From Candidatus Pelethomonas sp. (GTDB lineage: Bacteria; Bacillota; Clostridia; Oscillospirales; Oscillospiraceae), in NCBI GenBank assembly GCA_048404665.1, contig DBFJQM010000002.1, forward strand, positions 18,845-82,844: a DNA stretch of 64,000 nucleotides, written 5' to 3'. Both the position numbers and the translations under genes were made by a program. Below, piece by piece: positions 4,396 to 40,220 of the stretch. Every line of letters begins with the position of its first letter. The stretch's first letter is position 1. The notes below the pieces were generated by a model. The model saw only the letters and a program-made list of their open reading frames with translations. It searched no databases and was not told the origin of the DNA.

Positions 4396-5223
4396 TCACG
4401 CCAGATACCCGTCCCGGGCCTTGACGCCGAAACGCTGCTCCAGCAGGTGCATCTGCTGGTCGGTGATGGTCTGCTTCAACGGCAGGTGGGCGATCTTCAG
4501 ATAGATCTCGGCGGCTTTCTCGGCGGTCTCGATGAGGCCGAAGGTCTCGTCCAGGTCCTTCCCCGCGCCGTAGATGCCGTGCTGGGCCCAGACCACCAGC
4601 CGGGCGGTCTTCATCTTCTCCGCCGTGGCCTCGCCGATCTCGTTGGTGCCGCAGAGCATCCAGGGCAGCACGTTCACCCCGTCGGGGAACACCACGATGC
4701 ACTCGGTACACATCTGCCAGAGGGTGCGGGTGAAGGCCCGCTCGTCCAGGTCGTGGACGTAGGTCATGGCCAGCAAATTGGTGGGGTGGCAGTGCATCAC
4801 CACCCGGTTCTCCGGGTCCACCGCCAGCCGGGCCATGTGGCTCATGAGGTGGGCAGGCAGCTCGCTGGTGAACTTCCCACCGTCCTTGTAGCCCCACAGC
4901 AGCTCAGCGGTGGCGCCGTCGGCGGCGATGCGGAGGATGCCAAGGTTGGTCTCCGGGTCGTCCTCCACGTTTTTGAAATACTTGCCGGTGCCAGTGACCA
5001 GAAAATACTTCCCGGCCAGGGGCTTGGCCTCAAAGCCGATGGGGATGGTGCGGAGGACCTTGTTCAGGTCCAGATACTCCCCCACCTCCTTCTCGTCCAG
5101 CAGGAGGCTGATGTTGCCGCCGTTGCGCTCGTCCCAGCCCAGGCGGTACATGTTGGCGGTGGTTTTCTTCATCTCCTCCACAAAGGGAGTCGTTCCCATA
5201 AAAGCCCTTAAAATGTCCTTCAT
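4396..5223 (-). CDS. rhaD: Rhamnulose-1-phosphate aldolase (class II aldolase)
   Basis: 275-aa ORF, MKDILRAFMGTTPFVEEMKKTTANMYRLGWDERNGGNISLLL...; overlaps the rhaA stop (ATGA-type coupling). Confidence 0.9.
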   Translation of the reverse strand: MKDILRAFMGTTPFVEEMKKTTANMYRLGWDERNGGNISLLLDEKEVGEYLDLNKVLRTIPIGFEAKPLAGKYFLVTGTGKYFKNVEDDPETNLGILRIAADGATAELLWGYKDGGKFTSELPAHLMSHMARLAVDPENRVVMHCHPTNLLAMTYVHDLDERAFTRTLWQMCTECIVVFPDGVNVLPWMLCGTNEIGEATAEKMKTARLVVWAQHGIYGAGKDLDETFGLIETAEKAAEIYLKIAHLPLKQTITDQQMHLLEQRFGVKARDGYLA

Positions 5224-6470
5224 ACCCGGTTCACCAGCACTTTCTTCTCATAGTCCTTCACCTGGTCCAACCACGCCCCGTCGGCGGGCACGCCCTGGCG
5301 GCGGCAGTACTCGTCCCAGATCTCCCCAAAGGGGGCGGTCTTCAGCTCCTCCTGGGCCACCATGAGCCTGGTCCAGTCGTCGCCGTCCTGGAGGGCTTTC
5401 AGCTCCCCGTTGGGCTGGAGCAGGGCAAACAGCAGGGCCTTTTGCAGATTGCGGTAGCCCACCGTCCAGGCGGACACCCGGTTGATGGAGGCGTCGAAGT
5501 AGTCCAGGGCAATGTGGACCCGCTCCGCCCCGCAGCGGACGATCTCCCGGCAGATCTCCCGCGTCTCGTCATCGAACAGCACCACATGGTCTGAGTCCCA
5601 CCGGATGGGCCGGGTGACGTGGAGGGCGATTTCCGGGAAGAAGGCCAACAGGGCGGGAATTTTGTCGCTGACCACCTCGGTGGGGTGGTAGTGGCCGTTA
5701 TCCATAAGGGGGATGCACTTGTCCCGGTTGAAAGCGGCATAGCTCAGGGCGAACTCGGCGGAGCCGGCGGTGTAGGCCTCCACGCCGATGCCGAACACCT
5801 TGCTCTCGATGCAGGGCTTGACCTTCTTGAAGTCATAGGGCTCGGACAGGATCTGGTCAATGCTGTCCCGATACCGCTCCCTGGGCCCCAGGCGGTCGCC
5901 GGGAATGTCCTTAAAGCCGTCTCCGGTCCAGATGTTCATGACGCAGGGCTGGCCCAGCTCCTGGGCCAGGTAGCTGGAAATGCGGATACAGGCCTTGCCG
6001 TGGTCGATCCAGAACCGCCGGGTCTCCTCGTTGGGCGAGCTGAGGGTCAGGGGGTCGCACTTGGGGTGGGAGAAGAAGGTGGGGTTGAAATCGCAGCCCA
6101 GGCCACGTGCCTTGCAGAACTTGACCCAGGGGGCAAAGTGCTTCGGCTCCAGCTTGTCCCGGTCGGCCCACTGGCCGGGCTCAAAAATGGCGTAACTGGC
6201 GTGGAGGTTCAGCTTCTTGGCGCCGGGGCAAAGCTTCAGCACCTGGTCGATGTCGGCCATCAGCTCCTCCGGCGTCCGGGCCCTGCCGGGGTAGTTCCCC
6301 GTGGTCTGGATGCCGCCGGTGAGGGGCTTTGTGGGGTCGGTGTCGAACCCCCGCACGTCGTCTCCCTGCCAGCAGTGGAGCGCCACGGGGATGGTTTTCA
6401 GCCGCTCCATGGCCGCCTCGGCGTCCACGCCCAGGACGGCGTATTTTGCTTTCGCTTCCTGATAGCTCAT
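5220..6470 (-). CDS. rhaA: L-rhamnose isomerase
   Basis: 416-aa ORF with ...ALHCWQGDDVRGFD... and a RhaA-type TIM-barrel signature; sits between rhaB and rhaD. Confidence 0.95.
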   Translation of the reverse strand: MSYQEAKAKYAVLGVDAEAAMERLKTIPVALHCWQGDDVRGFDTDPTKPLTGGIQTTGNYPGRARTPEELMADIDQVLKLCPGAKKLNLHASYAIFEPGQWADRDKLEPKHFAPWVKFCKARGLGCDFNPTFFSHPKCDPLTLSSPNEETRRFWIDHGKACIRISSYLAQELGQPCVMNIWTGDGFKDIPGDRLGPRERYRDSIDQILSEPYDFKKVKPCIESKVFGIGVEAYTAGSAEFALSYAAFNRDKCIPLMDNGHYHPTEVVSDKIPALLAFFPEIALHVTRPIRWDSDHVVLFDDETREICREIVRCGAERVHIALDYFDASINRVSAWTVGYRNLQKALLFALLQPNGELKALQDGDDWTRLMVAQEELKTAPFGEIWDEYCRRQGVPADGAWLDQVKDYEKKVLVNRV

Positions 6471-7768
6471 AGCGTTACCTCCATCTGGATTTTTAAGTTG
6501 CCTAAGGCGGTTGCCTCGATGGGCAAAGCGATGACCTCTTTGCCCGTGGCTTCCTGGGTCAGTCGGTTCAGGAATTGGTTTTTCGCCCCGCCGCCCACGA
6601 TGTACAGCTTTTGATAGGTCTTGCCCGTGTTCTGCTCCAGCTCCCGAATGGCGTCCCGGTAGCTGAGCGCCAGCGAGCGGTAGGCACAGCGGAAGTAGTC
6701 CCCCACGCTCCGGGGCTGCTCCGATAAAGTGGCGTCAAAGGCGGCTCTCATACTTTCAGGGGCCAGGAACGCCGGGGCGTTGGCGTCCACGGTGTTCTCA
6801 AAACCGCTTTGCTCCGCTTCGGCTACGATCTCAGAAAACGGCTTCTCCGGGCACAGCTCGTCCCGGAGGCGGTTCACCAGCCACATGCCCATGATGTTCT
6901 TCTGATAGCGGGTATACCCCACGCCGCCCTCGTTGGACCAGTTCCCCGCCCGGCTTGCGGCGTCGGTGATAGGCTCAGGGACCTTCACCCCCAGCAAAGA
7001 CCAGGTGCCGGAGGAGATGTAAGGCTCGTTCCCCTCCATGGGGATGCCCTCCACCGCCGAGGCGGTGTCGTGGGTGGCACAGAGGACCACCTGGCAGGTC
7101 CCGCCCACCTCGCTCGCAACAGACGGCAGCAGCGGCCCCAGGACAGTTCCTGGCCCTCTGAGCCTGGGAAACAGCCCCTCAGGCAGGCCCAGGCGGCGGA
7201 CGGTCTCCCGGTCAAACTCCCCGGTCACTGCATTCACCAGCCCGGTGGTGGTGGCATTGGTGTACTCGTGGGCCTTGACTCCGGTGAGCTTCCACAGCAG
7301 GTATTCCGGCACCATCAGGAAATCCGCAGCTCCCTCCAGTCTGCCCGCCCGCAGGTCGTCGCAGAGCTGATAGATGGTGTTGAAGGGCTGAAACTGGCAG
7401 CCGGTGCGGGCGTACAGCTCCTCAAAGTGCGCCTTTTCATGGACGGCGGAAAGGACCGCCTCCGTCCGGCTGTCCCGGTAGGCATAGCAGGGCCAGACCT
7501 CCCGGTCTCCCCGGAGCAGCACATAGTCGCACCCCCAGGTGTCGATGGAGAGGCTCACAATGTCCGGGAACCGGGCAAAGGCGGCCTTGACGCCCGCCTT
7601 GACCTCCCGGAACAGTCTCTCCATGTCCCAGGTCAGGTGGCCCTCCCGCTCCACAACGCCGTTGGGGAAGCGGTAGACTTCCTCCGTCCTGAGCGCGCCG
7701 CCCTCCCGCCAGCCCACGATGTGCCGGCCGGAGGAGGCCCCGATATCAATGGCAAGGTAGCGCTTCAT
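6467..7768 (-). CDS. rhaB: Rhamnulokinase (FGGY sugar kinase)
   Basis: ORF track 6467..8113, trimmed to MKRYLAIDIGASSGRHIVG (ATG 7768) behind GAGGA. The upstream extension overlaps the GH3 gene end. Confidence 0.9.
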   Translation of the reverse strand: MKRYLAIDIGASSGRHIVGWREGGALRTEEVYRFPNGVVEREGHLTWDMERLFREVKAGVKAAFARFPDIVSLSIDTWGCDYVLLRGDREVWPCYAYRDSRTEAVLSAVHEKAHFEELYARTGCQFQPFNTIYQLCDDLRAGRLEGAADFLMVPEYLLWKLTGVKAHEYTNATTTGLVNAVTGEFDRETVRRLGLPEGLFPRLRGPGTVLGPLLPSVASEVGGTCQVVLCATHDTASAVEGIPMEGNEPYISSGTWSLLGVKVPEPITDAASRAGNWSNEGGVGYTRYQKNIMGMWLVNRLRDELCPEKPFSEIVAEAEQSGFENTVDANAPAFLAPESMRAAFDATLSEQPRSVGDYFRCAYRSLALSYRDAIRELEQNTGKTYQKLYIVGGGAKNQFLNRLTQEATGKEVIALPIEATALGNLKIQMEVTL

Positions 7769-7776
7769 AGCTGTCC

Positions 7777-10128
7777 TCACTTCCTCAGCATCGCCCGCAG
7801 TCCCCGGAAAAAGTGCCCGTTGGCCATCTCCAGCAGCCCTTGGGCCACCCCGTCGGTCATGCTCCCGCCGGCGTTGATGACGGTGGCCCGCAGGGGGCAG
7901 TCGGTGGCGCAGATCATCATCATGCAGAACGCGGGGTCGGAATAGTCCTTCCGGCCGCCGAAGCTCTTGGCGATGATGCCCTCGGTGACTTTGTATTGGA
8001 GCTTCATGACCAGGGAGCGGTCCTTCATCTCCATGCAGGAGTTGTCCAGGGTAAACTGTCCCTTTTTCGGCTCCGCTGCCAGAGGGACCAGACGCCCCAT
8101 GACCTTCTCCCACTCCTGCCGGGTGGGGACGCCGTCCAGGGTCTCATACCAGCTGCCCGCCTGCCATTCCGGCGCCGGGACAGCCTCCCCGTCGATATGG
8201 AGCGTCCCTTTCAGCCGGATATCCCGGCTGGAGGAGGCCAGCAGAAGCCCATAGTCCCCGCCGGGGACGTTCCAGCCATGATTATACACCGCAAAGCTGC
8301 GCTCGTCCAGAGGGAACTCCACTCGCCTGCTCTCCCCGGGCTGAAGTGCCACCCGGGCAAAGCCTTTCAGCTCCTTCTCCGGGCGGTGGAGGCCGCCCCT
8401 GGGCGGGGCCACATAGAGCTGGACCACCTCGGCGCCGGGAACCGCCCCTACATTGGTGATGGCGGCGGACACGCTCCCGCCCTCCACTTTCAAATCGCTG
8501 TACGCAAATTGGGTGTAGCTGAGGCCGTGGCCGAAGGGAAACCGAACCGCTTTTTTGGCCTTGTCGTAGTACCGGTAGCCCACGTAGACGCTCTCCCGGT
8601 ATTCCACATTCCGCTTTCCGAAGGTGTCCCTGGAGATCACGTCCTCATAGGTCAGCGGCCAGGTCTCGGTGAGCTTGCCGCTGGGGCTTGCCTTTCCCGT
8701 GAGCAGGTTGGCGCAGGCCCGTCCGCCCGCCTGGCCGGGCAGGCCCATGTACAGGATGGCCTTCACCTTGCCGCACCAGGGCAGCTCCATAGGGCTGCCC
8801 CCCAGCAGCACCACCACGGTGTTGGGGTTGGCGGCGGCCACCGCCTCGATCATACGGGTATGCCCCTCGGGCAGGGCCATGCTCGCCCGGTCAAAGCCCT
8901 CGGATTCGTAATTGTCCGGCAGTCCGGCCACCACCACGGCGATTTTTGCCTCCTTGGCCCCCTGGACCGCTTTCGCAAGCTCCGCCTCGGTGACGCGTCC
9001 GTCCCTGTCGCAGCAGGGGACGAAGGGCACATCCGGGAGGGCGTCGGTCAGGCTGGTGAGCCGGGTGGGGTTGATGTGGCTGGAACCGGCTCCCTGATAG
9101 CGGAAGTCCTTGGCCATGCGGCCGATGAACACCATATCGGCGGGGGAGGCCGGCAGCAGGCCGCCCTCGTTTTTCAGCAGCACCGCCCCCTCCTCGGCCA
9201 CGGTGCAGGCAAGGGCGTCGTGGCCGTCCACGTCAAAGGTCCCGTCCCCCTTCTTCCGCCGGGCGGAGCGGAAAGCCAGGCGGAGGATGCGCTCCACGGC
9301 GGCGTCGATGGTCTTTTCGTCCAGCGTCCCGCTCCTGACCGCCTCCAACGCGGCCTTCTCCATGAACCTGGAGCCGCCGGGCATATTCAGATCGCAACCG
9401 GCCCGGAAGCCCTCGATTCGGTCATTGAGGGCCCCCCAGTCGGTGACCACCATGCCGTCAAAGCCCCACTCCTCCCGCAAAACCTCCGTGAGGAGCCATT
9501 TGCTGTCGCTGGCGTGGACGCCGTTGATCTTGTTGTAGGAGCACATGACGGCGCCGGGCCTGCCCTCCCTGACGGCCAGCTCAAAGGGGGCCAGGTAGAT
9601 CTCCCGCAGGGCCCGGTCGTCCACCTGGCTGTCGCCGTTTTGCCGCTTGTACTCCTGGTTGTTGGCGGCGAAGTGCTTCAGGCCGGCGGACACCCCGGTC
9701 CCCTGCAAGCCCTTGATAAAGGCGGCGGCCAGCTTGCCGGCCAGGTAGGGGTCCTCGGACAGATACTCAAAATTCCGCCCGCAGAGGGGATTGCGCTTTA
9801 TGTTGCACCCCGGGCCCAGCACCACGTCCACCCCGGCGGCTGCGGCCTCCTCCCCGATGGCCCGCCCCTCGGCGGCATAGAGGGACCGGTCCCACGCCGC
9901 CCCGGCGGTCACCGCCGCAGGGAAGCAGGTGGCGGGAATGGAGTCGTTGACGCCGATCATGTCCGCCTCCCCGCTCTGGCAGCGCAGGCCGTGGGGGCCG
10001 TCGGACATGGTAACAGCCGGGATGCCGTACGGTTCCATGGCCTTGCTGTGCCAGAAGTCCGCCCCGGTGCAGAGGCTGATCTTGTCCTCCAGAGTCATTT
10101 TTGCCATGATTTCAGAGATATTTCCCAC
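7777..10128 (-). CDS. Glycoside hydrolase family 3 beta-glucosidase
   Basis: 783-aa ORF with GH3 N-terminal motifs (SDGPHGLR, KHFAANNQE, VVTDWGA) and an FnIII-like C-terminus. GTG 10128 sits behind GAGGAGGG inside the end of the GH78 gene. Confidence 0.9.
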   Translation of the reverse strand: MGNISEIMAKMTLEDKISLCTGADFWHSKAMEPYGIPAVTMSDGPHGLRCQSGEADMIGVNDSIPATCFPAAVTAGAAWDRSLYAAEGRAIGEEAAAAGVDVVLGPGCNIKRNPLCGRNFEYLSEDPYLAGKLAAAFIKGLQGTGVSAGLKHFAANNQEYKRQNGDSQVDDRALREIYLAPFELAVREGRPGAVMCSYNKINGVHASDSKWLLTEVLREEWGFDGMVVTDWGALNDRIEGFRAGCDLNMPGGSRFMEKAALEAVRSGTLDEKTIDAAVERILRLAFRSARRKKGDGTFDVDGHDALACTVAEEGAVLLKNEGGLLPASPADMVFIGRMAKDFRYQGAGSSHINPTRLTSLTDALPDVPFVPCCDRDGRVTEAELAKAVQGAKEAKIAVVVAGLPDNYESEGFDRASMALPEGHTRMIEAVAAANPNTVVVLLGGSPMELPWCGKVKAILYMGLPGQAGGRACANLLTGKASPSGKLTETWPLTYEDVISRDTFGKRNVEYRESVYVGYRYYDKAKKAVRFPFGHGLSYTQFAYSDLKVEGGSVSAAITNVGAVPGAEVVQLYVAPPRGGLHRPEKELKGFARVALQPGESRRVEFPLDERSFAVYNHGWNVPGGDYGLLLASSSRDIRLKGTLHIDGEAVPAPEWQAGSWYETLDGVPTRQEWEKVMGRLVPLAAEPKKGQFTLDNSCMEMKDRSLVMKLQYKVTEGIIAKSFGGRKDYSDPAFCMMMICATDCPLRATVINAGGSMTDGVAQGLLEMANGHFFRGLRAMLRK

Positions 10129-10130
10129 GG

Positions 10131-12686
10131 TCAGCCCTCCTCAAAGGTATAGGTCCCCGCCGGCAGCTCCCGCTTCAGCCCTCCGGGCAGCGCCAGCTCC
10201 GCCGTGCAGTTGGCGGGGACCGTGACGGTGTATGCCGTCTTTCCGTTCCGCCGCTCCCATCTGCTCTCCACTGTACCATATACGCTGTCATAGCGCAAGC
10301 CCGCGGCGGTAAAGTGTCCGCCGGGACGGGGCGCAACGGTGAAGCGGTTTTCTCCGGCCACCTGGATGCCGCACATGACCCGGAACACCCACTCGCATGC
10401 CGCCCCCTTGGAGTAGTGGTTCAGAGAGGCGATGCCCCCCTGGGCCCGGGTACCCTCCCAGCTCTCCCAGATGGTGGTAGCGCCGCTTTTGGGCATGGCC
10501 AGCCAGCCGGGAATCTCCTCGTTTTCCAGTAGCTTGTAGGCGTATTCAATATCCAGGTCCGAGAGCACATAGAGGATCAGCGGCGTGGACAAAAATCCGG
10601 TGCCCACCCGCCAGCCGTAGTGCTCCAGCGCCTGAAGCAGCCGCTTTTTCGCGTACTCGGTCTGCTTCTGGCTCAAAAGCCCGAAGTACAGCGGCCGCAC
10701 CAGCCGGGCCTGCCGGTCGGTGTCCAGGCTGTAGGTCCTTGTCTCCACCAGCTCCTGATAGGCGGCGGTGCAGCCCCGCTGATATTCCCGGTACAGGGGC
10801 ACGTCCTCCGTTTTCCCCAACGCCTGGGCCATCTCCGCCATGACAGCCATCACATAGGCGGTGTAGGCGGTGGACACCTCCGGGTGGGGCGCCACCATGT
10901 CCGTCCACCGGTTGGGGTACACGTCCGCCGGCTCCGCCCACTCGCCGTAGGACTGTCCGGCGTTGACGGCGTATTGCTTCGCTTTGCCTTTCAGCCCCAG
11001 GGGCTTGGCAAACAGGCCCAGCCTGCCGCACCGCCTCATCATAAAGCGGGCGTACCGGGCCATGGCGTCGTAGTTGTCCCGGATAAAGTCCATATCTCCG
11101 TACAGCTTCCAGCAGCGGTAGGGAATCAGCACCCCCGCGTCCGACCACCCCACCGAGCCGTTCATGGTGTTCATATAGGAGTCCACCCCGCCGTAGGGGG
11201 CGATCTGTGGGAAGCAGCCGTCCTTCCGCTGCCAGTCGGTCAGGTCCCGGATGTGCTTTTTGGCGAAGGGAATGTAGTTCATCAGATAGCCCGCCGTGAC
11301 GGCAAAGAGCTGGCTGTCCCCCGTCCAGCCGTGGCGCTCCCGGGTGGGGCAGTCGGTGGGCACGTCGGCGGAGTTGTTCTTGGCGCTCCACAGGGTACAG
11401 TCCACGAACCGGTTGAGAAGCGGGTTGGAGGAAGCGAACCGGGCCGTGACCTCCAGATTGGAGTAGACGGCGATGGCGGTGAAATCCTCCGGGGCAAAGG
11501 GCGCATCGGTCTCCACCAGCACATACCGGAACCCGAAGATGGCAAAGGCGGTCTTGTATTCGTTCTCCCCAGCCTTGCAGATGTACTCCACCTGCTGGAG
11601 GGGCGTGGCGATCTTTTTGTTGGAGCATTGGATATTCCTTTGGGTAAATTCGCCCGTATCGTCCAGCATCTCGCCGAACCGCAGGAATACCCGCTGCCCG
11701 GCCCGGGCCGTCAGGGAGAACGCCGCATAACCCGCGATGTTCTGCCCGAAGTCCAGCACCTTCCTGCCGGTGGGCGTGGTGATAAGCGTGGGCTTGAACC
11801 GCTCATGCTCGGTGACAGGCACATTGTTGGAGGCGGCAGGGACCACGCTGTGGCCGGTTTCCCGCGCTTTCCCGCCGCAGCTTGGGACCCGGCGGGCGTC
11901 CACCACCTCGCCGTCCTTGTTGTCGGCAAAGCGGACGGGGCCGTCGTTGGACCACTGCCAGGTCTCGTCGGTGCCGATGGTCTCCACCGTGCCGTCCGGG
12001 CCGGTCAGCTCCAGCTGAGCCAGCAGCTTGGTCTGGACGCCGTACTGGTTCCGAAGCCCCCAGGCCCCGCAGCTGCCCCGGTACCAGCCGTCCGCCAGCT
12101 GGAAGGTCAGCTCGTTTTGACCCTCCCGCAGCAGGGCGGTCACGTCGTAGGTCTGGTACTGCACCCGTTTGCGGTAGTCGGTATGGCCGGGAGCCAGGAC
12201 AAAATTACCGATCCGCTCCCCGTTCAGCCGCCCCTCGTACAGCCCGCAGGCGGTAGCATACAGCCGGGCCTTTACAATGTTCCGAACGACAAAGGTCCTG
12301 CGGAAGCAGTCCACGGGGTAGCGCTGCTTTTTGTTCACCTTATAGTCCCCGGTGATCCATTTGGCCGTCCAGTCCTCCGGCCTGAGCAGCCCCATCTCAA
12401 AAAACGCCGGCTCCGACCAGGGGCCCTCGGCCCCGTTTTCGTCCCACAGGCGCACCCGCCACGCCACTCTTGTCCGGGAGGTGAGCGTTCCCCCATAGGG
12501 GATGTGGGTCATCCGGCCGCTCTCCACTTTTCCGCTGTCCCAGACAGCGGTTCCGCCGGCCTCCGCCGCGATCTGATAGGCGGTCTGCTTCACCCCGCCC
12601 TCGCAGCTCCAGAACAGCCGGGGCTGGAGCGTGTCAATGCCCATGGGGTCTTTCAGATATTCCGTTCTCAGCCGAATCGCACGCAT
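10131..12686 (-). CDS. Alpha-L-rhamnosidase (glycoside hydrolase family 78)
   Basis: ORF 10131..12749, trimmed to MRAIRLRTEYLKDPMGIDTLQPRLFWSC (ATG 12686). This is the typical bacterial rhamnosidase N-terminus and (alpha/alpha)6 domain length. Confidence 0.9.
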   Translation of the reverse strand: MRAIRLRTEYLKDPMGIDTLQPRLFWSCEGGVKQTAYQIAAEAGGTAVWDSGKVESGRMTHIPYGGTLTSRTRVAWRVRLWDENGAEGPWSEPAFFEMGLLRPEDWTAKWITGDYKVNKKQRYPVDCFRRTFVVRNIVKARLYATACGLYEGRLNGERIGNFVLAPGHTDYRKRVQYQTYDVTALLREGQNELTFQLADGWYRGSCGAWGLRNQYGVQTKLLAQLELTGPDGTVETIGTDETWQWSNDGPVRFADNKDGEVVDARRVPSCGGKARETGHSVVPAASNNVPVTEHERFKPTLITTPTGRKVLDFGQNIAGYAAFSLTARAGQRVFLRFGEMLDDTGEFTQRNIQCSNKKIATPLQQVEYICKAGENEYKTAFAIFGFRYVLVETDAPFAPEDFTAIAVYSNLEVTARFASSNPLLNRFVDCTLWSAKNNSADVPTDCPTRERHGWTGDSQLFAVTAGYLMNYIPFAKKHIRDLTDWQRKDGCFPQIAPYGGVDSYMNTMNGSVGWSDAGVLIPYRCWKLYGDMDFIRDNYDAMARYARFMMRRCGRLGLFAKPLGLKGKAKQYAVNAGQSYGEWAEPADVYPNRWTDMVAPHPEVSTAYTAYVMAVMAEMAQALGKTEDVPLYREYQRGCTAAYQELVETRTYSLDTDRQARLVRPLYFGLLSQKQTEYAKKRLLQALEHYGWRVGTGFLSTPLILYVLSDLDIEYAYKLLENEEIPGWLAMPKSGATTIWESWEGTRAQGGIASLNHYSKGAACEWVFRVMCGIQVAGENRFTVAPRPGGHFTAAGLRYDSVYGTVESRWERRNGKTAYTVTVPANCTAELALPGGLKRELPAGTYTFEEG

Positions 12687-12687
12687 A

Positions 12688-14151
12688 CTATTCACCCTTC
12701 CTGCGGGCCTTGATTTCCTCCTGCTTTTTGCTGATGTCCTTCTCCACATTCAGGAAGATGAGCAGCGCCGCTAAGACAGCGCCGGTGAACACCTCCAGGC
12801 CCACAAAGCCGAAGGTGATGACGTTCTGCACCGCCGGGGTCTGGGCGGCGGCCACCGTCACCCCGTCCACGATCTCGGGGGCAATGTAGCCCGCCCCGGC
12901 CAGCCAGCCGTTAAAGATGCCGGTACACACCCCCACCATGGCTACGGCGATGATGTTGTACACCGACATGGCGATGCCGTCGCAGCGGAAGCCGGTCTTC
13001 CACTCCAGGTGGTCCAGCACGTCGGCAAACAGGGCCATGAACACGTAGGAGCAGGGCAGCCCGCCGATATTCTTGATGAACTGTCCCACCAGCATGATGG
13101 TCATATTGTGGGGGAAGGCCCAGCAGATGGCGCCGCCGACAGCGTAGAGGACAAATCCGGCCAGGGTCACGTTCCGCTTGCCGAACTTTTTCGCCAGGGG
13201 CCAGACGGCAAAGATGCCGATGCCCATGGGGATGCCGCCGATGACCGAGATCATGGTCTGGGTGATCCCGTCGTTGTAGGCGCCCAGCACATAGTTGCAG
13301 AAATAGACCAGGCTGATATTTTTGATGCAGCTGCCCGCGGTGAAGATGAGGAAATAGATGTAGATGATGAGCATATACTTATCGGTAAAAATGGCCTTCA
13401 GCTGCCGGGCAAAGGGGGCGGGCGGTTCCCCCGCCGCCTGGTTTTCCAGGGTGACCCGCTCCTTGGTGAAGAAGTATTCCACCAGCGTCAGCGGCAGGGC
13501 CAGAATGGACAGGCCGCTCATAAGTCCGATCCACTTGCCCTGGTCCACCCCCAGCATGGGCATGATGACCATAGGGAATACAAGGGCCACCAGGATGCCG
13601 CTCATCATAATGGTGGTGATCTGGTTAAAGACCGACAGCCCGCCCCGCGCCGTGGTGTCCCGGGTAGACAGGGGCACCATCAGGTTGTGGCTCATGTTGA
13701 AAATGGTGTAGGCGAAGGAGTAGAACAGGTTATAGGACACCATGACCCAGATGACCTGCACTGTCTCTCCGGCGTTGGGCACCGTAAAGAGCAGGACGCC
13801 GGTGACGGTCAGCAGCGGGGCCGACAGCAGAAGCCACGGCCGGGCCTTGCCCTCCCTGGTGCGGGTGTGGTCGATGATATAGCCCATCACCACGTTGGTA
13901 ATGGCGTCGATGACCTTGGACACGATGGGGAACACCACCAGAAAGGCCCCGCCCCACACATGGGTCAGCTTCAGCACGTCGGTATAGTACACGTTCAGAT
14001 AGGTGGCCAGCACCGCGTTGAGCAGCAGCGCCCCGGCGGGACCCAGCAGATAGCCCAGCCATTTTTCCGGGCGGGTCACGTTGTCCGAACGGATGCGGCT
14101 TGCCGGCAGGAGCCTGCTATGCCGGGCGCCCTTGTTCCTTGTTTTCTCCAT
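12688..14151 (-). CDS. Glycoside-pentoside-hexuronide (GPH):cation symporter, MFS superfamily
   Basis: ORF 12688..14184, trimmed to MEKTRNK (ATG 14151) behind GAGGAGG. About 12 predicted TM segments and GPH-like motifs. Confidence 0.85.
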
Positions 14152-38341: not shown

Positions 38342-39034
38342 TTATTCCTGCCGGGGGTCGATGTACTTCACCGCGGCGTCAAACTGGCCGTAGTGGCCCT
38401 TGGCCTTCTCCAGGGCGGTGTTGGCGTCGTCGCCCTTCTTGATGAAGTCCATCATCTTGCCCAGGTTCACAAACTCGTAGCCGATGACCTCGTCGTCGGC
38501 GTTCAGGGCCATGCGGGTGCAGTAGCCCTCGGCCATCTCCAGGTAGCGGGGGCCCTTGGCCTTGGTGCCGAACATGGTGCCGATCTGGCTGCGCAGGCCC
38601 TTGCCCAGGTCCTCCAGGGAGGCGCCCACGGCCAGGCCGCCCTCGGAGAAGGCGGACTGGGTGCGGCCGTACACGATCTGCAGGAACAGCTCCCGCATGG
38701 CGGTGTTGATAGCGTCGCACACCAGGTCGGTGTTCAGGGCCTCCAGGATGGTCTTGCCAATGAGGATCTCGCTGGCCATGGCGGCGGAGTGGGTCATACC
38801 GGAGCAGCCCAGGGTCTCCACCAGGGCCTCCTCGATGACGCCGTTTTTCACGTTCAGGGTCAGCTTGCAGGCGCCCTGCTGGGGAGCGCACCAGCCCACG
38901 CCGTGGGTGAAGCCGCTGATGTCCTGAATGTCCTTGGCCTGGACCCACTTGCCCTCCTCAGGGATGGGAGCGGGACCATGGTACGCGCCCTTGGCGACGG
39001 GGCACATGTTCTGTACTTCGGTGGAATAGATCAT
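38342..39034 (-). CDS. NifU/IscU-like Fe-S scaffold-domain protein with C-terminal extension
   Basis: 230 aa with the three-Cys pattern GACKLTL / LGCSGMTHSAAMASE / LVCDAINTA, resembling the IscU N-terminal domain. Sits 18 nt upstream of the GGGtGRT gene. Confidence 0.7.
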   Translation of the reverse strand: MIYSTEVQNMCPVAKGAYHGPAPIPEEGKWVQAKDIQDISGFTHGVGWCAPQQGACKLTLNVKNGVIEEALVETLGCSGMTHSAAMASEILIGKTILEALNTDLVCDAINTAMRELFLQIVYGRTQSAFSEGGLAVGASLEDLGKGLRSQIGTMFGTKAKGPRYLEMAEGYCTRMALNADDEVIGYEFVNLGKMMDFIKKGDDANTALEKAKGHYGQFDAAVKYIDPRQE

Positions 39035-39140
39035 GGCGGATATTCCTTTCTATCGTATTGTCACTAGCCCCGCCGTCGTTTGCGGGACCGGATGGCGAAA
39101 AGCGTTCCGGAATGGAGAATCCCATTACCCGGCACTATAA

Positions 39141-39169
39141 ATTATAGAAAACAGCGCCCGCTTTGTCAA
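39141..39169 (-). promoter_or_regulatory. Consensus sigma-A promoter of the NifU-like/GGGtGRT operon
   Basis: Minus strand TTGACA, 17 nt, TATAAT (both hexamers perfect); about 100-nt leader with hairpins. Confidence 0.6.
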
Positions 39170-39257
39170 GGCGAACGTTTTTCCTTTTCCCACAAAAATC
39201 ACGGCTCTGCCCTCCGTTTTCCCGGCAAACGGGCCTCTCTCCACGGTTTATCCCCTG

Positions 39258-39315
39258 AAAAAGCGCCAAAGAGGCGTCCGGGCGGTCTTGAGACCCGGAC
39301 GCCCCCTTGGCGCTT
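39258..39315 (-). terminator. Strong intrinsic terminator in the ORF-free region
   Basis: Minus strand AGCGCCAAGGGGGCGTCCGGG-loop-CCCGGACGCCTCTTTGGCGCT + TTTTT. Confidence 0.6.
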
Positions 39316-39463
39316 TCATATAGACACGTGTGAGAGGAGAGAGCTGTTCCTGTGCCGCCGCCCCATCGGCCGCACAGAGAAACACGATTCAAGCGGGCGC
39401 AAAAAACGCGCCCTGCACCGATTCCCAGGACGCGCAAGGCCCCCCTGCGGATGCAGTGAGGCC

Positions 39464-39620
39464 AAAACAAAAAGCGGCGCTTCCGGTTTCGGCGGAGTGC
39501 CGTCGCCCGCCATGTATCTGACTGATCCTCTCAGGGAGGCTTCACAGTGACCGACTCGCAGGGAATTTCACCCTATTCCATGGGCCGCTGACGCGGCGCG
39601 GGGCGACGCAGTATTCTCTT
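39464..39620 (-). promoter_or_regulatory. Candidate cobalamin riboswitch with terminator expression platform
   Basis: Minus strand ...CCATGGAATAGGGTGAAATTCCCTGCGAGTCGGTCACTGTGAAGCC...ATCAGTCAGATACATGGCGGG..., then a GC hairpin + TTTTTGTTTT. Matched from memory to the conserved B12 riboswitch core and B12 box; not verified with a covariance model. Confidence 0.55.
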
Positions 39621-39627
39621 ACTTGTG

Positions 39628-39656
39628 ATGATACCACACCAAACGCCGTTTGTAAA
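39628..39656 (-). promoter_or_regulatory. Promoter of the riboswitch-like unit
   Basis: Minus strand TTTACA, 17 nt, TATCAT with TG-extended -10 (TGGTATCAT). Confidence 0.5.
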
Positions 39657-39708
39657 GCGCCCGGGCGAGAAAAATTTTATTTGCCCTCCCCTCTCCGGCG
39701 GAAACATC

Positions 39709-39737
39709 TTGCCAATCCGTGCGCGCCGTCGTATAAT
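39709..39737 (+). promoter_or_regulatory. Putative ridA promoter
   Basis: TTGCCA, 17 nt, TATAAT; about 110-nt leader. Confidence 0.5.
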
Positions 39738-39851
39738 GAAAGACAAGCGGCCTTAGACGCCGGCCCCGTCCCGGACGCCGGCCCTTGAGACCGTCCGGAC
39801 AGATCCTGCGCAGCAGCGATGATTATTTTTTTGACATAGGAGGAACTACCA

Positions 39852-40220
39852 ATGAACGTGCTGGAAACCAAGAACGCCCCCGCCGCTATCGGCCCCTACT
39901 CCCAGGGGTATGAGGTGAACGGCTTTGTCTTCACCTCCGGCCAGATCCCCGTGGACCCCGCCAACGGCCAGGTCCCCGCGGGCATTGAGGCCCAGGCGGA
40001 GCAGAGCTGCAAGAACGTGGCCGCCGTGCTGGCCGCCGCAGGCGCCGGCCTGGAGCAGGTCTTCAAGACCACCTGCTTCCTGGCGGACATGGGCGACTTT
40101 GCCGCCTTCAATCAGGTCTACGCCCGCTACTTCACCTCCAAGCCCGCCCGCTCCTGCGTGGCGGTAAAGGACCTGCCCAAGGGCGTCCTGTGCGAGATCG
40201 AGGCCATCGCGGCCAGGTAA
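39852..40220 (+). CDS. ridA: RidA-family reactive enamine/imine deaminase
   Basis: 122 aa, MNVLETKNAPAAIGPYSQGYEVNGFVFTSGQIP...CEIEAIA; RBS TAGGAGGA. Confidence 0.9.
   Translation: MNVLETKNAPAAIGPYSQGYEVNGFVFTSGQIPVDPANGQVPAGIEAQAEQSCKNVAAVLAAAGAGLEQVFKTTCFLADMGDFAAFNQVYARYFTSKPARSCVAVKDLPKGVLCEIEAIAAR

Follow-up and report, generated by a model that had tools for sequence, protein, structure and literature searches.

A conserved, free-standing non-coding RNA unit with cobalamin-riboswitch-like architecture in uncultured gut Clostridia

The stretch of DNA analysed here, hereafter the window, consists of 64,000 nucleotides (nt) from Candidatus Pelethomonas sp. (assembly GCA_048404665.1, contig DBFJQM010000002.1, positions 18,845-82,844 of the forward strand). 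On its minus strand, at approximately 39258-39656, lies a transcription unit composed of a promoter, an aptamer-like domain, a series of hairpins and two strong terminators, named T3 and T4. This stand-alone unit, which lacks an open reading frame (ORF) and resembles a vitamin B12 riboswitch, is real and conserved: its autonomy, its conservation, the covariation of its helices, the lack of a conserved ORF and the cobalamin-riboswitch-like architecture are demonstrated. Whether it is, in full, an autonomous conserved non-coding RNA gene of about 370 nt, provided with a divergent, minimal, class-II-like cobalamin-type aptamer and a ligand-gated output, is in our judgement an evenly balanced question. 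The 5′ domain most likely derives from a class-II-like cobalamin aptamer, whose architecture it shares; by the thresholds that define them, it belongs to no current Rfam family. The unit probably senses a B12-type cofactor to control the making of an RNA and not of a protein.

A first-pass annotation of this DNA, made from the letters alone, had proposed a stand-alone B12 element similar to EutX and Rli55, two riboswitch-controlled regulatory RNAs. Comparative genomics, a compensated fold and a link to a genuine RF00174 riboswitch with a short P6 helix speak for that proposal, while the conserved dual hexaloop of ANTAR-binding RNAs is missing from the unit. The minus-strand sequence that had been quoted for the element is present in the window where it had been placed. 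The unit also has its own promoter. Specifically, a consensus scan finds three promoter-like sites in the intergenic region, as compared with 0.4 expected from shuffled sequences. The first is the sigma-70-type TTTACA-17-TATCAT promoter already annotated upstream of the element (39656-39628, minus strand), which carries, in addition, a TG extended -10; from its position, transcription is predicted to start at about 39621. The -35 CTTTACAA and the TG-extended -10 are kept in every lineage, including the distant copy L233 (TGGTATAAT). The second site is the perfect-consensus TTGACA-17-TATAAT promoter of the downstream NifU-like gene (39169-39141, minus strand), which had likewise been annotated, and the third is a TTGCCA-17-TATAAT promoter on the plus strand (39709-39737) facing a RidA-like gene (39852-40220). 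Between T3 and the next hairpin, H4, a check by eye revealed no convincing or conserved second promoter.

To follow the unit through related genomes, relatives were gathered by anchoring on V-ATPase subunit D. Two metagenome contigs (L001 and L002) have an intergenic region 100% identical to that of the window and thus carry no information. In lineages A and B (V-ATPase D 97% and 96% identical), V-ATPase D is followed by RidA and an aminotransferase on the opposite strand, then by the module and finally by an operon encoding a NifU-like and a GGGtGRT protein. In lineages with 89-90% V-ATPase D identity the module stands directly 3′ of V-ATPase D and is followed by a convergent ORF of 60-70 amino acids (aa) and a xanthine/uracil permease gene, and in L093 the next genes form a convergent acetyltransferase-GGGtGRT-NifU-like cluster. 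In two further lineages at a similar V-ATPase D distance the module was not found at that position. By blastn, the conserved part is a discrete unit, namely intergenic columns 174-579, corresponding to about 39273-39678 of the window, and the identity of the module is approximately 83% in A and B, falling to about 71% where V-ATPase D is 90% identical. A pattern scan added an eighth lineage, the IMG/VR contig L233, with a far more diverged copy of complete architecture; it is the one true member recovered from viral contigs, all other matches of those scans being due to chance. Altogether, profile searches of loci anchored on V-ATPase D yield 27 copies, 19 of them distinct, and with L233 included the module has four different downstream contexts. 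As to the surroundings of the L233 copy (contig positions 1-7300), it lies directly 3′ of a phage-tail lysozyme/peptidase C39 gene, with an IS30-like transposase (HTH_38 and rve domains) and an ORF with a weak reverse-transcriptase match nearby, that is, at a prophage or mobile-element boundary.

The pattern of conservation is selective. Between the window and the lineages with 90% V-ATPase D identity, the aptamer core is 86-88% identical and T4 84-86%, as compared with 71-73% for the third-codon positions of V-ATPase D; the strands of helix P1, where changes are compensated, fall to 55-71% and the rest of the tail to 39-58%. The strongest conservation coincides with the junction and loop nucleotides that match the cobalamin core.

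The anatomy of the RNA was derived from a set of alignments (A2-A5), and all coordinates below refer to the minus strand of the window unless otherwise stated. The aptamer-like domain enclosed by P1 (39501-39608) adopts a divergent cobalamin-type fold with a short P6 and scores 164 bits with a covariance model of the family, R1. P1 itself is formed by a 5′ strand at 39599-39608 and a 3′ strand at 39501-39509, and contains four doubly compensated pairs. Between P1 and P3 there is a P2-type hairpin (39585-39596, CCGC-GUCA-GCGG), whose stem is conserved and whose loop varies across lineages (GUCA, UGAU, GUUGU, CUG). The 5′ strand of P3 (CCAUG, 39579-39583) pairs with the B12-box side of the domain, in particular CAUG at 39579-39582 with CAUG at 39511-39514, the 3′ CAUGG spanning 39510-39514. 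There follow J3/4 and the P4 T-loop hairpin (39560-39578, GAAUA-GGG-UGAAAUU-CCC-U), the counterpart of the GGUGnnAAnnCC hairpin of cobalamin riboswitches; it aligns to the consensus of both RF00174 and RF01482, and its closing pair changes from A-U to G-C in 3 of 11 sequences. P5 consists of just two pairs and, together with its loop L5 (39549-39557, GA-GUCGG-UC), is invariant in the 11 distinct sequences. The short P6 (39518-39547) has CUG/CAG at the base and CCUC/GAGG at the top, with a loop that varies in length and sequence across lineages. Finally, the B12-box-like J6/3 and the 3′ strand of P3 (39509-39523) read AGUCAGAUACAUGGC, whose aligned counterparts are AGCCAGGAGACCuGCC in RF00174, with one deletion, and AAGUCAGGUCUUU in RF01482. 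The AGUCAG-AUACAUGGC it contains aligns to the B12 box (approximately rAGYCMGgAgaCCkGCc) with one G deleted and ACA for ACC, and is invariant in all 11 distinct sequences.

An explicit cobalamin-type secondary structure, including a candidate kissing interaction between L5 and the hairpin P13 that follows P1, was scored by pair counts. In a MAFFT alignment (A4) 99.0% of the cells pair and five pairs are changed on both sides. A model-guided alignment that includes L233 (A5), and that was itself fitted to the fold model, gives 99.1% of paired cells, against 37-42% with slid 3′ partners, and none of 500 shuffles reaches its values. Seven pairs are changed on both sides in A5: four in P1, the others in P3 (CAUG/CAUG to CGUG/CACG, a compensated A-U to G-C change in L233), in the T-loop hairpin P4 (A-U to G-C) and in lower P13. 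RNAalifold, applied to the whole transcript, independently recovered P1, P2, the T-loop hairpin, hairpin H2 and both T3 and T4, with 15 of 89 predicted pairs compensated.

Kinship with known riboswitches was searched with Rfam. At gathering thresholds, the only match in the window is a tRNA. When the search is confined to 39450-39630 (181 nt), RF00174 is matched over its full length at 39492-39615, with 16.7 bits against a gathering score of 31.5 and E=0.016; arithmetically, the same match scaled to the window, with about 354 times more sequence, has an E-value of about 6. The annotated match to the cobalamin core thus holds as a full-length alignment in the short search, and it does not hold as a significant score, this being sub-threshold and absent from wider searches. 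By the Rfam covariance-model check that the first-pass annotation itself had named, with no significant match found, the idea would fail. We nevertheless regard it as partly supported despite the sub-threshold scores, because the module is conserved in different contexts, its fold is compensated and it is linked to a genuine RF00174 riboswitch.

In the window copy, the RF00174 core aligns column for column, including the T-loop hairpin, GC..ACUGUnA and the four-way junction that P3 closes, and 9 nt replace the P6 extension, which occupies 60 positions of the model. The copy in L222 matches RF01482, the Enterococcus eut-type adenosylcobalamin (AdoCbl) aptamer, with 19.6 bits against a gathering score of 50 (E=0.12, model positions 25-96 of 149); since the search tool keeps one match per clan, RF01482 alone represents the cobalamin clan in this copy. 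UGGAA, CACUGUGA, a short P6 and AAGUCAG are shared by the L222 copy and RF01482. The class-I P6 extension with GCCACUG and GGGAAGG, present in genuine class-I examples, is absent from the family, which excludes class I only and not the clan.

Further indications come from a metagenome search pattern that is one base off the core layout of the element, owing to an extra N in the L4 loop. Such a pattern is unable to retrieve the family, and its 120 matches were used as a control set. In all 20 of the control loci tested the pattern lies inside an RF00174 riboswitch (32-122 bits); the core layout of the element is therefore one base away from a natural signature of cobalamin riboswitches. The family model R1 yields 45 matches (E<=10) over the 583 kb of these riboswitch loci, mostly on the cores, as compared with four weak ones in a 573-kb control, an enrichment that is partly circular in that the loci had been chosen by a pattern derived from the element. 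One match, to locus L136, covers the full length (35.3 bits, E=1.6e-5). L136, whose P6 is likewise short, passes RF00174 (39.5 bits) and lies upstream of an ORF of 659 aa that by eye resembles a TonB-dependent receptor. With short-P6 members of RF00174 such as this one the family has in common the order of the helices, that is, P1, (P2), P3, the P4 T-loop, P5, ACUGUGA, the short P6, the B12 box and the closing strands of P3 and P1. It differs in controlling no coding gene, whereas L136 precedes one; from the consensus it is set apart by the P2 hairpin between P1 and P3. An atypical cobalamin-like element unrelated to the family occurs in a group of contigs, namely in a human gut metagenome record (L142, 398-650) and in L104, L172, L189, L191, L193, L199 and L204; it has an unusual L4 (GGGGUGGCCAAACCCC) and, in L142, the one copy scored, barely passes RF00174 (32.5 bits).

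A number of observations weigh against a cobalamin-type aptamer with ligand-gated output, beginning with the fitting of A5 and the circularity just mentioned. A search of 39000-39900 (901 nt) at E<=10 returned no family of the cobalamin clan, every copy stays below all Rfam gathering scores, and that in L094 has no cobalamin-clan match at E<=10. As compared with RF00174, L5 is GUCGG and not C-rich, the B12 box is short of one G and reads ACA against a consensus ACC, and both GCCACUG and GGGAAGG are missing. P5, P6 and the kissing loop are invariant or changed on one side only, so that covariation neither supports nor contradicts them. Downstream, the U-run after P13 is not conserved and the first U-run moves between P13, H2 and T3 according to lineage, which makes a regulated terminator uncertain; T3, for its part, looks like a strong constitutive terminator, and the extent to which the 3′ blocks are transcribed is accordingly in doubt. 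The conserved pair of AxxGxx hexaloop hairpins recognised by ANTAR proteins (EutV) was not found in the tail. Among the 20 large ORFs of the window there is no B12-, eut-, pdu- or ANTAR-related gene. Lastly, with about eight lineages, the phylogenetic depth is shallow.

One reading we consider unlikely, though the strongest of the competitors: the unit would sense no ligand, being either a structured small RNA or a series of stacked terminators and insulators, and its likeness to cobalamin riboswitches would be convergent or accidental. At the scale of the window the Rfam likeness is indeed insignificant (no match at E<=10 over 901 nt, an E-value of about 6 after scaling), one lineage (L094) lacks it, and direct covariation support is confined to P1, P3, P4 and P13, which are generic helices. 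Moreover, the 171-nt element taken alone folds no better than shuffled sequence, its folding energy being unremarkable (z = -0.87). Chance or convergence would, on the other hand, have to account for two diverged copies whose best riboswitch matches fall in a single clan among 4227 Rfam families, for six helices and their junction motifs matching in order and spacing, for an end-to-end alignment with the genuine short-P6 cobalamin riboswitch L136, and for a conservation that peaks exactly on the nucleotides equivalent to the junctions and loops of the cobalamin core.

Slightly less probable still, in our estimate, is an aptamer that has kept the architecture and changed its ligand from standard cobalamin to another cobamide, a corrinoid precursor or an unrelated metabolite. 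Variants with altered ligand specificity are known in other riboswitch families. In the present case, L5 (GUCGG) and J6/3 (AGUCAG-AUACA) deviate from RF00174 and RF01482 precisely in ligand-proximal or kissing-loop elements, and these deviant positions are invariant in the 11 distinct sequences while P1 and the loops drift, which implies a distinct constrained core; with both cobalamin-type models the scores of the family fall far short of gathering, and no B12 gene lies in cis. Set against this, the layout, the T-loop hairpin, CACUGUGA and AGUCAG match the cobalamin models and no other Rfam family, and no positive sign points to another ligand. Variation in these junctions is, besides, known among class II cobalamin aptamers (PMC6158498).

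It is very improbable that the element is the decaying relic of a riboswitch left by deletion of a B12 gene, as the first-pass annotation had also considered, or else a small-protein gene. Local deletions do occur, in that the window is devoid of the aminotransferase gene seen beside the module in sister lineages, and every lineage has an ORF that starts from an AUG in the B12 box. However, the absent aminotransferase is encoded on the opposite strand, at a position upstream and not downstream of the module, and a core more conserved than third-codon positions, with helices kept by compensation across lineages and contexts, is incompatible with neutral decay; the relic is rejected on these grounds. 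As for a protein, a 1-nt indel shifts the frame of the ORF between lineages, its length varies between 39 and over 90 codons, and hardly any of the changes are synonymous. Pfam searches with every ORF of the intergenic region gave no match. The B12-box ORF, as judged from its sequence, is not a conserved protein. The comparison of the locus across related genomes thus reveals no conserved ORF, and the tail, annotated as lacking any ORF with a ribosome-binding site, contains none that is conserved or recognisable by Pfam.

The least probable of all is a 5′ leader controlling the NifU-like/GGGtGRT operon by long-range read-through, another alternative of the first-pass annotation, which would fit the co-directional position of the module directly upstream of the operon in the window, A and B, and which is effectively refuted by the absence of the element from 80 other operon-bearing species, by the differing contexts (other genes between module and operon in lineages C-E, a convergent operon in L093) and by the intervening T3, T4 and perfect promoter at 39169-39141. 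Specifically, the operon was found in 80 other species (L003-L082), with a protein 79-93% identical, and blastn, nhmmer, a fuzzy pattern, Rfam and model R1 all failed to find the element upstream of it in any of the 80, which is why we do not consider the element its leader; neither RidA nor V-ATPase D is upstream of the operon in those species. Judged by the NifU-like protein, the named relatives nearest to the host are Faecousia and Oscillibacter. Among L003-L082, the NifU-like/GGGtGRT pair (79-93% identical at the protein level) is present in metagenome-assembled genomes labelled Alistipes, Rikenellaceae, Treponema, Kiritimatiellae, Anaerobiospirillum, Megasphaera and Senegalimassilia, which points to unusual conservation of the pair or its horizontal spread across phyla, or alternatively to contaminated bins.

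Returning to the conserved non-coding RNA with a cobalamin-type aptamer, the part 3′ of the aptamer is a succession of hairpins. The first, P13 (39476-39501, loop CCGAAAC), is conserved and has one compensated pair in an imperfect stem. It is followed by the U-run GCUUUUUGUUUU (39464-39475), which is a good one only in the clade of the window, the other lineages having UAUUUCUGUCC, UCGUUCUGUCC or GUUGCCGCG in its place. The segment 39464-39510 had been annotated as a terminator made of a GC hairpin plus TTTTTGTTTT: the hairpin, corresponding to P13 (T1 when named as a terminator), is present, and the terminator is doubtful, since the stem is imperfect, strict terminator scans never call it for that reason, and the U-run is degenerate elsewhere. 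UCGG of L5 is complementary to CCGA or CCGG of the P13 loop in every sequence, the sole variation being U-A versus U-G with no double compensation; from this complementarity we infer the L5-P13 contact as a candidate kissing loop. Next comes hairpin H2 (39438-39463, GGCCUCACUGC-AUCC-GCAGGGGGGCC), in which pair 178/187 covaries from C-G to U-A; in lineages C and D, not in the window, H2 is followed by U3-U4 and scores as a terminator.

The intrinsic terminator T3 (39395-39435) is made of a stem, GCGCGUCCUG...CAGGGCGCG (39407-39435), and of six U residues (39401-39406), followed by GCGCCC. A strict hairpin-plus-U-run scan calls it in 6 of 6 lineages tested, 178-209 nt into extracted transcripts that start 2-4 nt upstream of P1, and the sequence of its stem changes between lineages with pairing kept. 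The annotated P13 terminator is, in other words, clade-specific, and T3 is the universal terminator, which the first-pass annotation had overlooked. Hairpin H4 (39350-39377) contains the invariant block UGGGGCGGCGG, preceded by a conserved GUGUUUC(U/C)C; it is supported by alignment A3 and RNAalifold and is present in L233. A single AxxGxx hexaloop hairpin (GCCG-AUGGGG-CGGC) is found only in the window, A and B lineages, the AUGGGG hexaloop of H4 being limited to the clade of the window.

Just 5′ of T4, an apparently single-stranded conserved block, GUCUAUAUGAAAG or GUCU(A/G)UAUGAAA(G) (39313-39325), is kept in the V-ATPase-linked lineages of A3, in the form AUCUGUAUGAAA in L231 and L232, and not in L233; it is a candidate effector or seed sequence. 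The unit ends with T4, a GC-rich terminator hairpin with a near-invariant loop, CUCAAGACC, followed by a U-run. The strong terminator that had been annotated near 39258-39315 was found at 39258-39316. T4 shows compensated stem changes and drives the fold of the 376-nt transcript (z = -4.4), and its loop motif occurs just twice in the window. Such near-invariance of CUCAAGACC across lineages is unusual for a simple terminator loop. There is also a partial match of T4 (39257-39317, minus strand) to the Rfam ftsZ-DE RNA, RF02985 (25.6 bits against a gathering score of 72.2). In lineages C-E the convergent 60-70-aa ORF, which has no Pfam family, lies directly after T4 (L094 6281-6478, L222 6220-6432 and L231 6331-6513, all on the minus strand), and T4 could serve as a bidirectional terminator for it.

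Non-coding RNAs gated by B12 riboswitches offer a term of comparison. In EutX, the last hairpin of the aptamer is a terminator stabilised by AdoCbl, and the ligand selects between a short and a long RNA (PMC5821096; PMC8079631). The present unit resembles EutX of Enterococcus faecalis and Rli55 of Listeria monocytogenes, both with class IIb aptamers (RF01482), in being a stand-alone unit with its own promoter and no ORF, in its 5′ aptamer with short P6, and in that RF01482 is the best Rfam match of the L222 copy; only in the clade of the window, however, would the last aptamer hairpin double as a terminator. It differs in the low score (19.6 bits versus a gathering score of 50), in L5 and J6/3, in the P2 hairpin between P1 and P3 and in the host, an uncultured lineage of gut Clostridia. 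The ANTAR dual hexaloop, which the first-pass annotation had suggested looking for in the read-through part, is not there; in place of that decoy the unit has three or four serial hairpins or terminators and other conserved blocks. Nor is it located in a eut locus, none with EutV/EutW being found among the 20 large ORFs of the window or in 10-kb flanks of the related loci. In AspocR of Listeria, a B12 riboswitch with bound ligand ends a non-coding transcript early, and the long form acts on another gene (PMC8079631). Similarly, read-through past T4 would be antisense to the convergent gene in lineages C-E and L093. Unlike AspocR, T3 and T4 end the unit before its neighbours, and the downstream neighbour varies and is co-directional in the window, so that the antisense target is not conserved.

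By analogy, a logic similar to that of EutX and Rli55 is proposed and probably applies, with an output other than an ANTAR decoy; ligand, switching step and any target in trans are what we infer. Binding of a corrinoid to the aptamer would lock P1/P3 and the L5-L13 contact, thereby favouring early termination. In the clade of the window, the early stop would fall near 39464, at P13 and its U-run, and leave an RNA of about 155 nt; in other clades it would fall at H2 or T3. With no ligand bound, the polymerase would continue as far as T3 or T4, making RNAs of about 220 and about 365 nt, respectively, and the longer forms would carry conserved 3′ blocks (H4, GUCUAUAUGAAA and the T4 loop) acting in trans. 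A search by eye for antiterminator pairing of T1 or T3 gave no consistent alternative helix, and the switching step is therefore put forward only as a proposal.

In no lineage is the module upstream of a gene for cobalamin transport, synthesis or a B12-alternative enzyme; its neighbours vary and none is B12-related. The 20 large ORFs of the window cover rhamnose catabolism, glutamine synthetase, a TRAP transporter, V-ATPase, DnaK/J and Rnf. Among them is a rhamnose-utilisation cluster (4396-12749, minus strand) with a class II aldolase, RhaA isomerase, FGGY kinase and alpha-L-rhamnosidase. Fermentation of rhamnose leads to 1,2-propanediol, whose catabolism needs B12, and the cluster might represent, speculatively, a thematic link to a B12-sensing RNA. 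As for the NifU-like gene, its 5′ untranslated region of about 105 nt (39035-39140, minus strand), 3′ of the perfect-consensus promoter, has no Rfam match and no alignment outside lineages A and B. Upstream of the module, the gene missing from the window, which sister lineages A and B have between RidA and the module, encodes a class I/II aminotransferase of 402 aa (L083 6162-7370). In its place the window has about 173 nt (39679-39851) that are not alignable to A and B and carry the TTGCCA-17-TATAAT promoter (39709-39737, plus strand) and a T4-like hairpin (GGTCTCAAG, about 39770-39800). These features point to a recent deletion or replacement, which may have taken place between similar hairpins.

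As to the meaning of these findings, riboswitches that gate a non-coding RNA instead of an mRNA are, to our knowledge, just a handful (EutX, Rli55 and AspocR). Whether RNAs of the EutX kind exist outside eut loci in clostridia is a question raised in a review of ethanolamine utilisation (PMC5821096). The element described here, missed at Rfam thresholds, is a conserved and concrete candidate for such an RNA in abundant, uncultured Clostridia of the human gut. More tentatively, and on balance we think it unlikely, it might be the first representative of a new sub-class of riboswitches, corrinoid-type or re-specified, unseen by the Rfam models, existing only as free-standing units in gut Oscillospiraceae-like Clostridia, with a long isoform that acts in trans in a manner unlike the ANTAR sponge. 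The action in trans could take place by base-pairing through the GUCUAUAUGAAA and UGGGGCGGCGG blocks, or by capture of a protein by the T4 loop. If so, the RNA of this sub-class would link cofactor availability to distant B12-dependent pathways.

Exchange of corrinoids shapes the community structure of the gut microbiome. If the element binds a different ligand, it would represent a new ligand class on the cobalamin scaffold. If it binds a corrinoid, the sequence space of class II cobalamin aptamers would be wider than known, with a different L5 and J6/3, standard annotation would under-count B12 sensing in the gut microbiome, and the unit would constitute a new case of cofactor-controlled regulation in trans.

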